Shown here one piece after another: positions 1 to 37,174 of a stretch of DNA of 37,174 bases. Source of the stretch: a virus (Duplodnaviria; Heunggongvirae; Uroviricota; Caudoviricetes); the IMG/VR virus record IMGVR_UViG_2671181127_000013, positions 1-37,174 of that record, one strand, 5' to 3'. Position numbers and translations under genes: made by a program. Numbering within the stretch: position 1 is the stretch's first letter; every line of letters begins with the position of its first letter. The notes beneath the pieces are model-generated. The model was not told where the DNA came from, searched no databases, and saw nothing but the letters and a program-made list of their open reading frames with translations.

Positions 1-141
1 TTACTGCTTACACTGTAAGAACGCCGCAAACTCCGCTCCCCAGATGTTCATCCGTATTTCACACAGCGAACCATGTAACATCCAGATGATGAGGATTGCC
101 GTCACGCAGAACGTGATGGCCATAAGCGATTTTTGCGACAT
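1..141 (-). CDS. Hok/Gef-family type I toxin, 46 aa (copy A)
   Basis: My translation of the reverse complement: MSQKSLMAITFCVTAILIIWMLHGSLCEIRMNIWGAEFAAFLQCKQ; N-terminal TM helix plus SLCEIR...AAF motif as in plasmid R1 Hok (KSLCEIR...EVAAF); AAGGAG SD upstream; below the 60-aa ORF-track cutoff. Confidence 0.6.
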   Translation of the reverse strand: MSQKSLMAITFCVTAILIIWMLHGSLCEIRMNIWGAEFAAFLQCKQ

Positions 142-294
142 AGCGCTTGCTCCTTTGTTGGAGAGGCGCTAACCTGTCACTTGCTAAGGTTAGATGGTTA
201 GGGCCTCGGGTTAACGTTTAAGTTGACTCGGGGCCTTTCCACATCCGGCCTTCAGGTAATCCTTCCAGCCGTCAGCCGAAAGGCACCCACGTGT

Positions 295-323
295 AATCTA
301 CTGATTTCCCTTTGTGCGCGCAA
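295..323 (-). promoter_or_regulatory. Putative sigma70 promoter of hok-like copy A (TTGCGC-17 bp-TAGATT on minus strand)
   Basis: -35/-10 hexamers with 17-bp spacer upstream of the conserved leader; the same architecture recurs upstream of copy B. Confidence 0.4.
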
Positions 324-358
324 TGCTCAGTGTTGAAACTGTTTAGGGGGAGGGCGGC

Positions 359-381
359 AAAAAAGCCCGCATATTGCGGGC
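359..381 (-). terminator. Rho-independent terminator downstream of hok-like copy B
   Basis: Minus-strand hairpin GCCCGC-AATAT-GCGGGC followed by TTTTTT. Confidence 0.5.
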
Positions 382-472
382 AAATACGTCTGTAATCCAA
401 TGGAGAAAGGGGTGCCATATCGACTGAACCCGACAACCGGATAGCGGGGGCTTTCACCCCCGCTGCGGTTTC

Positions 473-613
473 TTACTGTTTACACTGCAAGAACGCCGCA
501 AATTCTGACCACATGATGTTAAGTCTGAACTCACACGGCGAACGGTGTATCATCCAGATGGCCAACAACATGGTTAAGCATAAAATGCTCACGATGATCG
601 TTTTTTGCGGCAT
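473..613 (-). CDS. Hok/Gef-family type I toxin, 46 aa (copy B)
   Basis: My translation: MPQKTIIVSILCLTMLLAIWMIHRSPCEFRLNIMWSEFAAFLQCKQ; about 60 percent identical to copy A, same C-terminal EFAAFLQCKQ. Confidence 0.55.
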   Translation of the reverse strand: MPQKTIIVSILCLTMLLAIWMIHRSPCEFRLNIMWSEFAAFLQCKQ

Positions 614-747
614 AGCGCTTGACTCCTTTTACAGGGAGGCGCTAACCTTCCACTTGTCTAGGGTAGGAATGGTTAGGGCCTCGGGTTAAACAATATGTTT
701 GACTCGGGGCCTTTCCACATCCGGCCTTCAGGTTTTCCTTCCAGCCG

Positions 748-1050
748 TCAGCCGAAAGGCACCCGCGCGTAATGTACTGGTTTTAAAGCCATACCGCAAT
801 CCTCCAGTTGTAGCGTTAACTGACTGCGTCCCTGATGGGATTTGCGCATTGTCTCCCGTGGAATATCTTTATCGTGGAAGATCAACTGAGGCTGGCCAAT
901 AATTCTGTGCACACTTTCCATTGTTGAAAATGTGGCGCTGCACTCAAGGTTATTGCACTGATAGTATTTGTAGCGGATGGTGCCGGTATCATTGGCGGCT
1001 TTACTGGTACGGATCCGGGCAGATGCGCCGCAGAATGGACAATGAAACAT
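748..1050 (-). CDS. ogr: Ogr/Delta-type zinc-finger late-gene transcriptional activator (100 aa)
   Basis: MFHCPFCGASARIRTSK...YYQCNNLECSATFSTMESV matches the P2 Ogr Cys4 zinc finger; start moved to the internal ATG at 1050 (upstream GGGGG SD); the ORF-track N-terminal extension was rejected. Confidence 0.85.
   Translation of the reverse strand: MFHCPFCGASARIRTSKAANDTGTIRYKYYQCNNLECSATFSTMESVHRIIGQPQLIFHDKDIPRETMRKSHQGRSQLTLQLEDCGMALKPVHYARVPFG
771..799 (-). promoter_or_regulatory. Putative sigma70 promoter of hok-like copy B (TTGCGG-17 bp-TACATT), lying inside the 3' end of the ogr ORF
   Basis: Same -35/-10 spacing as the copy A promoter; sits just upstream of the conserved ~160-bp leader. 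Confidence 0.4.
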
Positions 1051-1094
1051 TGATATACCCCCCTGGCTGAACTGGGGTTGAACTCGTCGCCATT

Positions 1095-2219
1095 CTAACC
1101 ATTGCTTTCCTTTTCGGCTATCCACTCGGGTATTCTTGCCTCCAGTTCAAGCCTTGTGGTGAAGCCGCTTCCGTCGATATTGTGTTCCACTTTTGCAATG
1201 AGCCAGTCCTGATTGTCTATCTCGGTTTTAAAGCCGGTTACCGTGCCATGCATTTCAGGGTAAAGCTCCGCTCTGCCCCGGGCCAGCGTGATGGAGAATT
1301 CAGCCGCACCGCGCTGTAATTGCTGCCACCTGGCGGCAGCTGCGCGCTGTGCAGCAATTTCGTTTGGGTAGGTTTTTCTCAGAACGAACACGTTACCTTC
1401 TGCCCCCTCCATGTAGCTGCCTTCCCGGCTGCTGCTCTTTTCAGCGTGAGTTTTTCGTTTTTTTATGTTGACGGCTTTCTTTTTGCCATGATTCAAATCC
1501 AGCCAGTACGCCTTCACCCCTGTGTATGCCTGGCGATCGGCTATTCTGAACTGGTGACTGTCTCCGTCACTGCGTGCCAGTGCAAATGAGGGGAGTGGGC
1601 GCCCGTCAGCTGTCACGCCGCCACCCGGCAGAATGAACAGCAGACAGCCATTTTTGACGGTAGTGATGGCTCCCAGCATATCAGCCATGCGGGTAAGGAA
1701 TGATATGTCGCTTTCTTCCGTCTGGTCGGCATGATCGATTTCAATATCCATAAGCATATCGCTTATCTGGGCTTTCAGTCCGTAACGGTGGGCAATAGCG
1801 GAAACCACGCGTTCAACAGTCACGTCGTGCCAGGATACTTCCCGTTTGACGTTAAATTCCTCCCTGAAGTCTGCGCTGTTTGCACTCAGTGTCAGCCGAT
1901 CCGGAGGTCCTTCATGAGCGACCTCATCAACAATGTAGGTGCCTTTATCAACCAGAGGCTCTCCCTTCCATCCCAGCATGACTCTGATGTGTGTTCCCCG
2001 CCCGGGGAGAGCCAGTTGCCCGTCGGCATCATCCAGCACAAGAGTGACCCTGTCTGCTTCAAACCCCCGGTTGTCTGTCATGGAAAGCGATATCACCCGG
2101 TTATTCAGTTCCTGAAGTGTGTTTTTATCCTGCTCCCTGTCCAGTGAAACGCTGAAATCAGGCATTTTCACCAGTTCTTTCAGGGGGGAATAAACCGTGT
2201 TACCGTTCAGCAATACCAT
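1095..2219 (-). CDS. D: Tail protein D (late control gene D family)
   Basis: LSMTDNRGFEADRVTLVLDDADG motif typical of Phage_GPD; start set at ATG 2219 with GGAGG SD; the longer ORF-track N-terminus overlaps FI and is not credible. Confidence 0.9.
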   Translation of the reverse strand: MVLLNGNTVYSPLKELVKMPDFSVSLDREQDKNTLQELNNRVISLSMTDNRGFEADRVTLVLDDADGQLALPGRGTHIRVMLGWKGEPLVDKGTYIVDEVAHEGPPDRLTLSANSADFREEFNVKREVSWHDVTVERVVSAIAHRYGLKAQISDMLMDIEIDHADQTEESDISFLTRMADMLGAITTVKNGCLLFILPGGGVTADGRPLPSFALARSDGDSHQFRIADRQAYTGVKAYWLDLNHGKKKAVNIKKRKTHAEKSSSREGSYMEGAEGNVFVLRKTYPNEIAAQRAAAARWQQLQRGAAEFSITLARGRAELYPEMHGTVTGFKTEIDNQDWLIAKVEHNIDGSGFTTRLELEARIPEWIAEKESNG

Positions 2220-30262: not shown

Positions 30263-30441
30263 GGTGTGGCCTCTTTGCTAGTAAGTTCTGAAAACTCACC
30301 ATCCAGAGCTGCGAAACTGTGGGTGGCGAGACGTACGAGGTTCGCAGTACCGGCTAGCAAAGAACCCGGCCCGACCGAAGTCGGCCCCGTACGCCCCGCC
30401 ATTATTCTGACGCGAAAAAGACGTGGCGATACAGTACGCAC

Positions 30442-30462
30442 AAAAAAACCGCTGGCGCGGTT
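30442..30462 (-). terminator. Putative rho-independent terminator separating early-left genes from the replication module
   Basis: Minus-strand ACCGC-GCCA-GCGGT hairpin followed by T7. Confidence 0.4.
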
Positions 30463-30645
30463 GTGCGCTTTGCTAGTCGGCGGGCTGCGAAACCCGGCAC
30501 CCGTTTTATGAGATGCGGGAAAACTGTAACCCGACCAGACGAGCGCTGGCAAGCGGTTTTTGTGTTGCGTGCTGATGTGGTTAGAATGTGGCGAATTAAT
30601 ATCACCTGGCAACTGGTGATTGTCTGCATACGCGGGGTGTTTCTG

Positions 30646-31911: not shown

Positions 31912-32892
31912 TCACGTACTGGCAGGGGTAAACATCACGCTGTAAGTTGCATCTCCCGTCACAGGTCCGCAGTCCGGGCAGTAGCCACCGCCATAGTGAC
32001 CGCAGGCGTTGCACTGTCTCAGGGTGGCGATAACTTCCGGTGCTGGTTCGCGGGTTCTTGCTCCAACGCTTCGTGGTGCCTGTATGCAGTTCATCCGGTA
32101 ACCCCGATAAATGCGTCTGGTTTCCGGTGTGTCGGAATTGGAGATGGTGATTCTGGTCATGCCGCCCGTTTCCTGCGAAAGGCGGTCAAGTGCTGCCCTC
32201 AGGCGAACGTGCTCGTGTTCATCGAATGGTTTTCCGTAGGCGGTGAAATTGCCCTCGCCACTGAACCGCAGGTAAGGGGGATCGCAGTACACGCAAAGCG
32301 TGTTGCCCATGCCGAACAGGTGACTGGCAGAGCTCAGCGTATCCTTAAAATCTGCGTGGATAAGCAGCGTTTGGGTGCTGTTTGCCTTGTCTGCAAATGC
32401 GCGGATTTCCCGCTCAGGGAAGTAGGGTTTTCGGTAGCCGCCGAAAGGCACGTTAAAATCACCTTTTCCGTTCACCCGGTACAGGCCATTAAAACAGTGC
32501 CGGTTGAGGTACAAAAACATGGCGGCCAGTCGCAGTTCACGGCGGTCGCTTATTCCCGTTCTGCTACTCAGGAAGGCATGATTCTCTGCGTTAAAGGTTT
32601 CGCGAATGATGAGATAGTCACCCCTGTTGTTGTGGTTCAGGAACAGGGTTTTCGCCTCGTCGATCAGACTGTCGGTGTTGTCCCGTGCTGCCCGCCAGAA
32701 ATTAATCAGCGCACCATTGGAATCACCCAGGATGTAACGCTTGTAACTGGTGTTCATGAATACCGATGCGCCACCCACGAACGGTTCAACCAGGCAGTCA
32801 GCTTCTGGCAGATGCGCCTTCAGTGTGTTCATGATGCGGCTTTTGCCACCCACCCATTTCAGCGGTGTGCCGGATAACAGTTCTTTGCTCAT
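31912..32892 (-). CDS. DNA adenine N6-methyltransferase (Dam/D12 class) with C-terminal Cys-rich extension
   Basis: LKWVGGK N-terminal motif and DPPY catalytic motif; C-terminal CNACGHYGGGYCPDCG. Confidence 0.85.
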   Translation of the reverse strand: MSKELLSGTPLKWVGGKSRIMNTLKAHLPEADCLVEPFVGGASVFMNTSYKRYILGDSNGALINFWRAARDNTDSLIDEAKTLFLNHNNRGDYLIIRETFNAENHAFLSSRTGISDRRELRLAAMFLYLNRHCFNGLYRVNGKGDFNVPFGGYRKPYFPEREIRAFADKANSTQTLLIHADFKDTLSSASHLFGMGNTLCVYCDPPYLRFSGEGNFTAYGKPFDEHEHVRLRAALDRLSQETGGMTRITISNSDTPETRRIYRGYRMNCIQAPRSVGARTREPAPEVIATLRQCNACGHYGGGYCPDCGPVTGDATYSVMFTPAST

Positions 32893-36181: not shown

Positions 36182-37174
36182 ATGTCGATTAAGCAACTCA
36201 AAGACGGGCGTTATAAGGTTGATGTAAGACCGCAAGGGACGGAAGGAAAGCGGATCCGTAAGATTTTTACCCTGAAGTCAAAGGCACAGGAGTTTGAAAG
36301 GTATGTTTTGCAGAATTTCCACGATAAACCGTGGCAGGCCAAGCCAGCTGATCAGCGTCGGTTATCCGAACTGATAGATGCCTGGTGGGTGCTTGATGGC
36401 CGGAATCAGCCTTACGGGGATACTTACAGGGTCAGGCTGGAAAAAATAAACCGTGAGATGAGGGACCCCCGCGCCAGTGAGATGACGCGAAAGTTTATGC
36501 TCGGGTATCGTTCAGATAAATTACAGGCCGGATTAATGCCCTCCAGTGTTAATCGTGATTTGTGTGCCTTGTCTGCAATGTTTACCTCGCTGATTGATGC
36601 GGATGTTTTCCATAACGAAAACCCGGTGCGTGGAATACGTAAGCTCAAGGTCAGGAATACAGAAATGGCCTTTCTTTCAGATGATGAGATTGATCGGCTG
36701 CTTGAACGACTCGAGGGGGATGCGCGTCGCGTTGCTGTTCTGTGTCTTTCCACTGGCGCAAGGTGGGGGGAAGCAGCTGGCTTACGTGGTGAGCATATCG
36801 TTGGTAACCGCGTAATGTTCTTTAACACAAAGAATGGAAAATCCCGCGCGGTTCCTGTTTCTGATACGGTGCTTTCGTTGATAAAAACCCGAAAAACCGG
36901 GCTATTGTACCAGGCTGATTACATCCGTTTTCGGGATATCCTTCAGGAGGTGAAACCGGATTTACCCAAAGGTCAGGCGACTCACGTTATGCGTCACACG
37001 TTCGCCACGCATTTCATGATGAACGGCGGAAATATCGTTACGTTACAGCGAATCCTTGGGCACGCCACGATTCAACAAACGATGACGTATGCGCATTTTT
37101 CACCGGACTTTTTACAGGATGCGATTAGCTTTAATCCGCTGGCTGATAGTGTCCATAAACTGTCCATTGACTAG
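36182..37174 (+). CDS. int: Tyrosine integrase (P2 Int family)
   Basis: 330 aa with R...HxxR...Y catalytic-domain features (LSTGARWGEAAGLRGEHI, HVMRHTFATHF, TMTYAH); ATG 36182 with GGAGGGG SD; stop is the last codon of the window. Confidence 0.9.
   Translation: MSIKQLKDGRYKVDVRPQGTEGKRIRKIFTLKSKAQEFERYVLQNFHDKPWQAKPADQRRLSELIDAWWVLDGRNQPYGDTYRVRLEKINREMRDPRASEMTRKFMLGYRSDKLQAGLMPSSVNRDLCALSAMFTSLIDADVFHNENPVRGIRKLKVRNTEMAFLSDDEIDRLLERLEGDARRVAVLCLSTGARWGEAAGLRGEHIVGNRVMFFNTKNGKSRAVPVSDTVLSLIKTRKTGLLYQADYIRFRDILQEVKPDLPKGQATHVMRHTFATHFMMNGGNIVTLQRILGHATIQQTMTYAHFSPDFLQDAISFNPLADSVHKLSID

Follow-up and report, generated by a model that had tools for sequence, protein, structure and literature searches.

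Genes encoding small membrane peptides of the Hok/Gef family occur in nearly 80% of Enterobacteriaceae genomes and are enriched fourfold in prophages (10.1101/2025.08.07.668861, Escalera-Maurer et al.). Two copies are found in 3.5% of the phages that bear hok, and 'islets' of 2–6 hok genes within 2 kb account for 10% of all Hok and, in Escherichia, for 13.5% of the chromosomal hok genes; in 98% of these islets the peptides belong to a single 60%-identity cluster (10.1101/2025.08.07.668861). One prophage-borne E. coli system, hokW–sokW of Sakai prophage 5 (Sp5), is proven toxic, is neutralised by Sok in an RNase III- and Hfq-dependent manner, and hastens phage release after induction (PMC8621323, Takada et al. 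2021). Here we describe a pair of hok genes, copies A and B, at one end of a 37,174-nucleotide viral sequence (IMG/VR record IMGVR_UViG_2671181127_000013, positions 1 to 37,174; hereafter the window), an E. coli P88-like prophage (Xuanwuvirus, Peduoviridae, P2-type). Our analysis strongly favours two complete type I toxin–antitoxin (TA) cassettes of the hok/sok type, arranged in direct tandem in the moron slot that separates ogr from attR in a prophage at the E. coli serS terminator. The element is of a known kind and is already annotated (RefSeq, 'Hok/Gef family protein'), and both prophage enrichment and tandem islets are published; only the divergence between A and B within the pair is slightly unusual.

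Like hok/mok/sok of plasmid R1, both cassettes combine a small Hok/Gef membrane peptide with a long structured leader, 5′–3′ fold-back and a sequestered Shine–Dalgarno (SD) sequence, together with a cis antisense RNA of ~60 nucleotides (nt), predicted here, that has its promoter near the hok SD and its hairpin over the leader. They differ from R1 in that the peptides are 46 amino acids long and end in ...FAAFLQCKQ, in having leader open reading frames (ORFs) of 8 and 15 codons in place of mok, and in being phage-borne rather than plasmid-borne. The same 46-amino-acid subfamily is carried by P88, by other Xuanwuvirus and by Stx-converting phages (PHROG 251, 'MokW-like' Hok), and the Stx-phage copy next to lom resembles copy B. 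Each of these phages has one hok copy, whereas the present prophage has two diverged copies in tandem. With hokW–sokW the cassettes share the character of a prophage-borne E. coli hok/sok type I system; identity with HokW was ruled out, as HokW is a different, 51-amino-acid paralogue that by its primers begins MKQQKAM (PMC8621323), and 'MokW-like' is a label of PHROG and phage-annotation pipelines only.

The two 46-amino-acid minus-strand ORFs claimed by a first-pass annotation of the window were both found, copy A at 1–141 (MSQKSLMAITFCVTAILIIWMLHGSLCEIRMNIWGAEFAAFLQCKQ; WP_000078909.1) and copy B at 473–613 (MPQKTIIVSILCLTMLLAIWMIHRSPCEFRLNIMWSEFAAFLQCKQ; WP_001135719.1). Both peptides scored above the gathering score of 22 bits for Pfam HOK_GEF (PF01848; 30.3 bits for A and 26.6 for B), which bears out the family assignment made there, and both matched PHROG 251 'MokW-like host killing' (81 bits for A, 67 for B). 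Seven residues are kept in >80% of 1264 Hok peptides (M1, C16, T18, L30, C31, E32 and E41; 10.1101/2025.08.07.668861). By-eye comparison placed all seven in copy A (M1, C12, T14, L26, C27, E28 and E37) and six in copy B, where P26 replaces the leucine to give SPCE instead of SLCE; both copies have a cysteine at the 'position 48' site (C44).

HokA was the top NCBIfam model for A and B alike, and scores of 34–37 bits against a cut-off of 89 indicate that neither peptide is a HokA orthologue. The chromosomal hokA–hokE genes of K-12 have their Pfam family in common with A and B, which are Hok-family members orthologous to no named K-12 Hok. Most of the K-12 chromosomal loci were reportedly found by Pedersen and Gerdes in 1999 to be inactivated.

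The two peptides are identical at 26 of 46 residues (56.5%), which, set against the 60% clusters, puts the pair at or just beyond the islet limit. The ratio of non-synonymous to synonymous divergence (dN/dS) between the copies is 0.26 with a dS of about 1.15, indicating old paralogues under purifying selection. The exact A and B peptides each occur on about 1000 contigs. Toxicity on testing was seen for 42 of 45 Hok homologues, whatever their location (10.1101/2025.08.07.668861), and by analogy with these homologues both peptides would be toxic.

The hok leaders are far more alike than the genes that they precede. Transcription of hok A is predicted to start at 288 (GGGUGCC...) and that of hok B at 764 (GGGUGCC), giving minus-strand leaders of 147 nt (142–288) and 151 nt (614–764), somewhat shorter than the ~160 bp first proposed. 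The accompanying claim that the leader is far better conserved than the coding sequence (CDS) held: A–B identity is 87.1% in the leader compared with 69.5% in the CDS, ~60% in the 3′ untranslated region (UTR) and 61% in the promoter region upstream of +1. Given a synonymous divergence of ~1.15, conservation of the leader far exceeds that of neutral sites. Each leader has the AAGGAG SD noted earlier (150–155 in A, 623–628 in B), 8–9 nt 5′ of the hok ATG. Rfam RF01794 ('sok') matched both leaders, at scores under its gathering threshold, over its full length (model 1–157) on the hok strand, at 131–288 for A (42.0 bits, E 9e-8) and 602–764 for B (43.9 bits, E 3e-8). With both matches on the hok-coding strand and a consensus that terminates in AUG, what the model effectively represents is a hok leader overlapping sok.

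Putative minus-strand hok promoters of the TTGCG-17-TA.ATT form given in the first-pass annotation are present upstream of both leaders and are weak by consensus. That of hok A spans 295–323, with a −35 TTGCGC (323–318), a 17-nt spacer and a −10 TAGATT (300–295); that of hok B spans 771–799, with a −35 TTGCGG (799–794), a 17-nt spacer and a −10 TACATT (776–771), and lies within the ogr frame. For comparison, we used 44 non-redundant related loci collected with a leader motif that included the 3′ arm of the lower stem of the antisense hairpin described below. A TTG...–TA.ATT pair was found at the matching position in 40 of these 44 relatives. Across 73 distinct related units, the 5′ blocks of the leader are 92–99% conserved compared with 45–70% for the flanks, a range partly forced by the search motif, and the conserved blocks fall on paired elements.

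Folding of the complete mRNAs pointed to a hok-type design. As the window begins at the stop codon of copy A, the 3′ UTR of that copy, with its fold-back element and terminator, lies outside it; we found it in the source genome (L001 5879–6000, where an L001 coordinate is the window position plus 6000) and used it for folding. The first-pass statement that the two loci are complete thus holds for the source genome, and fails for the window, in which copy A lacks everything beyond its stop codon. Compared with shuffled sequences, the two full-length mRNAs are far more stably folded (−173.8 kcal/mol, z −7.7 for A; −168 kcal/mol, z −6.5 for B). In both, nt 1–15 are predicted, in the minimum free energy and centroid structures alike, to pair with nt ~338–355 of the 3′ UTR, and this partner lies ~35–65 nt beyond the stop codon. 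The fold-back (fbi-like) element of hok B occupies 410–435 on the minus strand and pairs with the mRNA 5′ end as GGGUGCC / GGCACCC (CGGCUGAC / GUCGGGUUCAGUCG); that of copy A lies at L001 5935–5967, outside the window. A GCACCC-type partner is found equally distant from the stop codon in 43 of the 44 relatives and a GCAUCC variant in the remaining one, with duplex energies of −23 to −31 kcal/mol between partner and 5′ end.

The SD is predicted to be sequestered in both copies, its GGAG pairing at a probability of 0.94–1.00 with a CUCC that lies upstream, and in silico truncation of the 3′ end caused the 5′ end to refold onto nt 50–59. Both mRNAs are thus predicted to have the two-state design of hok, with fold-back inhibition and refolding after 3′ processing, and the structure prediction proposed in the first-pass annotation as a check for fold-back elements returned both the 5′–3′ pairing and the sequestered SD. 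The intrinsic terminator earlier assigned to copy B was confirmed at 359–381 on the minus strand (GCCCGCAATATGCGGGC followed by TTTTTT); its copy A counterpart is at L001 5880–5909, outside the window. Rfam matches to rseX, isrK and anti-hemB at 357–451 (E 0.3–5) were set aside as mere resemblance to a terminator. Just 3′ of the hok B stop codon is a G+C-rich stem-loop (442–465, minus strand) that is conserved in copy A, P88 and the Stx-phage homologue.

On the opposite strand, each leader encodes a hairpin that fits a Sok-like antisense RNA of ~60 nt. The plus strand can form uninterrupted hairpins of 16–18 bp at 200–237 and 675–713. For a 73-nt segment around hairpin A the plus strand folds at −36.2 kcal/mol (z −5.7) compared with −19.7 (z −1.5) for the minus strand, and for a 77-nt segment around hairpin B at −39.2 kcal/mol (z −6.9) compared with −22.2, an asymmetry that arises because G·U pairs of the antisense hairpin become C·A mismatches on the hok strand. 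These G·U pairs are invariant, and all 44 relatives show greater stability on the antisense strand (mean −28.7 versus −17.3) despite differing upper stems. The predicted Sok-like RNA A (182–240, plus strand) would comprise a single-stranded 5′ tail, the hairpin at 200–237 and a terminal UUUCC; its counterpart B spans 655–716 (plus strand), and the predicted single-stranded tail is variable.

The first-pass annotation had suggested looking for Sok promoters at 180–300 and 650–780; the candidates lie instead at 147–175 and 619–648, where they overlap the hok SD and start. The putative plus-strand Sok-like A promoter has a −35 TTGCTC (147–152), a 17-nt spacer and a −10 TAACCT (170–175), and the putative Sok-like B promoter, also on the plus strand, a −35 TTGACT (619–624), an 18-nt spacer and a −10 TAACCT (643–648). 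The sequence GAGGCGCTAACCT is invariant in all 44 relatives, with TTG(C/A/T).. 17–18 nt upstream in every one. The Sok 5′ tail is predicted to form a duplex of −47 kcal/mol with its own leader, compared with about −29 for the leader of the other cassette.

Several observations weigh against reading the pair as hok/sok cassettes. Both peptides fall far under the NCBIfam Hok cut-offs (34.1 and 36.6 against 89 for the HokA equivalog model NF007290; 22.2 and 27.0 against 73 for the Hok subfamily model NF007279), and the RF01794 scores (42–44 bits) do not reach the curated gathering threshold of 59. A generic promoter scan flagged none of the four proposed promoters, two for hok and two for Sok. 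The Sok −10 TAACCT fits the consensus at only three of six positions, and its invariance could equally reflect the hairpin that sequesters the SD on the hok strand; the U tract after the Sok hairpin is only UUU, a weak intrinsic terminator. Alignment-based analysis of the antisense hairpin detected 0 compensatory pairs, in part because the 3′ arm of the invariant lower stem was in the search motif (an ascertainment bias); the register of the upper stems varies. For 44 representative mRNAs the RNAalifold consensus was a local 5′ hairpin and not the long-range 5′–3′ pairing, which is supported instead by single-sequence folds and duplex calculations. Finally, neither copy has a mok frame overlapping hok with an ATG, GTG or TTG start.

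A working model for the two cassettes can be drawn by analogy with R1 hok/sok, from sequence and folding. A weak promoter would yield a stable hok mRNA of ~400 nt, translationally closed by pairing of its 5′ end with the 3′-UTR element and by burial of the SD in a local hairpin. Removal of the 3′ end would let the 5′ end refold onto nt 50–59. An antisense RNA of ~60 nt, whose promoter would overlap the hok SD, would be fully complementary to leader nt ~45–106, including the start of the short leader ORF, and would block expression or trigger cleavage. On loss of the antisense RNA, the 46-amino-acid membrane peptide would be made and would damage the inner membrane. The leaders of these old paralogues would owe their likeness to constraints on the RNA and, in part, to inter-cassette recombination. 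Such cassettes may serve in prophage retention, phage exclusion or as an aid to lysis.

A different explanation of leader similarity is that it stems from recent recombination or gene conversion among neighbouring or co-resident cassettes and not from selection on RNA structure, which we consider possible though rather unlikely. Cassettes A and B form a direct tandem in a 472-bp register and, as complete units, point to duplication or recombination rather than to serial integration. Copy A is a mosaic: its CDS is 94% identical to that of P88 and its leader only 79%, whereas the A leader is 87% identical to that of B. The prophages of STEC2018-607 and SCU-106 are 100% identical from window position 262 onward, but only 64–76% identical across the serS-proximal cassette, which is A-type in STEC2018-607 and B-like in SCU-106; this break marks an exchange of the serS-proximal cassette, its crossover falling within the leader. 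The swapped region runs from about −90 to 260 in window coordinates (L001 5910–6260) and corresponds to L006 4976–5326, with crossovers in the conserved leader and in the 3′ flank. In strain N51, two adjacent hok copies encode identical peptides.

Recombination by itself accounts less well for the contrast between leader 5′ blocks and flanks, for the coincidence of these blocks with paired elements, or for an antisense hairpin whose stability is kept with different upper-stem sequences. The mosaic identities and the cassette swap indicate that recombination adds to leader similarity alongside RNA constraints. Both probably contribute, so that this explanation complements the reading of the pair as two hok/sok-type cassettes.

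Arrays of hok at serS vary between strains. Three hok copies lie 3′ of serS in Bongo and in N51 (L004 5001–6339 and L005 5001–6089, respectively). After them comes a different, degraded prophage that has genes for baseplate and tail fibre, and in both strains the peptide nearest serS is that of copy A (WP_000078909.1). This marks the serS terminator as a shared hotspot of integration. Of 5426 complete E. coli genomes, only 12 matched ≥80% of a query comprising the tandem plus ogr, and among the 80 listed of 119 IMG/VR loci a single locus contained two motif matches.

The state of the mok frame raises the question of whether the loci are decaying, silent relics, in which a truncated mok equivalent leaves Hok untranslatable and the cassettes hitch-hike with the prophage. 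A conserved AUG at mRNA position +45 (window 244–242 and 720–718), preceded in each copy by GAAGG, opens a truncated mok-like frame of 8 codons in A (218–244, minus strand; MWKGPEST*) and of 15 codons in B (673–720, minus strand; MWKGPESNILFNPRP*). Translation of hok in R1 requires mok (PMC8621323), and as mok and hok do not overlap here, the translational coupling step of R1 cannot operate as described. Relatives with a frame of 61–78 codons that overlaps hok number only 6 of 44. The truncated frame is, however, the majority state, seen in the other 38, and all 44 loci retain an intact hok ORF (46–48 amino acids), a strong AAGGAG SD, a promoter, a fold-back partner and a terminator. Mok-frame truncation thus appears to be the usual state of the 46-amino-acid Hok subfamily, with hok always intact. 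Together with the A–B dN/dS of 0.26 and the toxicity of most tested Hok homologues irrespective of location, these features make decay an improbable account of the pair.

Both copies are phage cargo, a point that the first-pass annotation had left between host and phage. Window positions 1–1100 match, with 100% identity, the chromosomes of E. coli STEC2018-607 and JNEC-KY203, in which the PGAP annotation lists, just downstream of serS, two 'Hok/Gef family protein' genes followed by ogr and gpD. The ogr gene (748–1050, minus strand; ogr/Delta zinc-finger late activator by RefSeq annotation, Pfam Ogr_Delta 58 bits) encodes 100 amino acids, and its frame crosses the hok B promoter and stops at a TGA that lies 17 nt into the leader of hok B; read-through from ogr would therefore give 5′-extended hok B transcripts. 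The ogr product of P88_4B11 has 86 amino acids, and the C-terminal ~25 residues of the present protein are encoded by the hok promoter and leader. In Xuanwuvirus genomes that are packaged or complete, one such hok adjoins ogr, and in P88 and P88_4B11 a single A-type hok occupies the same slot between ogr and the att/int end.

The empty-site comparison that had been proposed for locating the prophage boundary, carried out with K-12 against SCU-106, identified 16-bp repeats of the serS terminator. The SCU-106 prophage has an identical integrase protein, is identical to the window over 262–1100 (94% overall across 1–1100) and lies, tandem included, between serS and dmsA. It is bounded by the repeats CCTGCGGGCG(C/G)TTTTT, and K-12 homology stops and resumes exactly at them, the resumption coming right after int. 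No copy of the att core was found between A and B. Because both copies lie inside the 16-bp att repeats with no att between them, hok A and hok B are cargo of the phage in the ogr–att slot. The contrary view, in which the hok copies, or at least A beside serS, are host-resident or left over from earlier integrations and the prophage merely abuts them, could draw on the copy A peptide found beside serS in Bongo and N51 with further hok copies and a different degraded prophage, and on an int-side flank in STEC2018-607 that is not dmsA, but is highly improbable given that the K-12 serS–dmsA interval has no hok and its homology ends within the serS terminator, that in SCU-106 K-12 sequence resumes at the same repeat after int with both copies inside, that no att core separates A from B, and that the ogr–att slot is likewise filled by an A-type hok in P88 and P88_4B11.

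In the int-side flank of STEC2018-607, the 16-bp att repeat and dmsA are both absent. This flank (L003 5300–5900 = NZ_CP075697.1 855300–855900) contains a truncated DUF2138 gene (yfaA-like) and then yfaT, an alpha-2-macroglobulin gene and yfaQ, an arrangement suggestive of inversion, or of secondary-site recombination, at the attL of this strain. A 19-bp imperfect repeat was also considered as the att core, GTGTCCATATAATGCCCAT near serS (L001 5849–5867) and GTGTCCATAAACTGTCCAT at the 3′ end of int (about 37145–37163, in the last ~30 bases of the window), and was excluded by the exact SCU-106/K-12 junctions. P88 holds an analogous pair. The repeat is not the crossover core and may be an Int-binding site of arm or core type.

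Elsewhere in the prophage, Rfam identified a C4 antisense RNA at 30319–30406 (minus strand; 82 bits, gathering score 45) and, beside it, isrK at 30442–30516 (minus strand; 64.5 bits, gathering score 50). Together these look like a C4/IsrK regulatory RNA pair of the P1/P7 type in a P2-type phage. At about 32000–32300 (NZ_CP075697.1 860156–860383), a gene for a ParE family toxin-like protein lies beside those for a Dam-type methylase and a 3′–5′ exonuclease, without an antitoxin neighbour in the existing annotation.

Beyond correct annotation, the importance of the pair is little. To the RefSeq record the analysis adds coordinates for the RNA parts left unannotated there (the leader, the fold-back element and the putative Sok RNA with its promoter), as well as the cargo status of both copies, the usual lack of an overlapping mok in the subfamily and the swap of the serS-proximal cassette between near-identical prophages. 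The absence of mok and the cassette swap lead to two small questions, namely how hok translation is controlled without mok and how specific co-resident Sok RNAs are for their targets. One tentative and doubtful answer is that the 46-amino-acid Hok subfamily works without mok coupling, the short leader ORF under the Sok target acting as a stand-in, and that the cassettes are kept as modules that do not cross-react, the attR-proximal one apparently being exchanged among prophages of otherwise identical sequence through recombination in the conserved leader. If this were true, prophages could be shuffling addiction or exclusion specificities.

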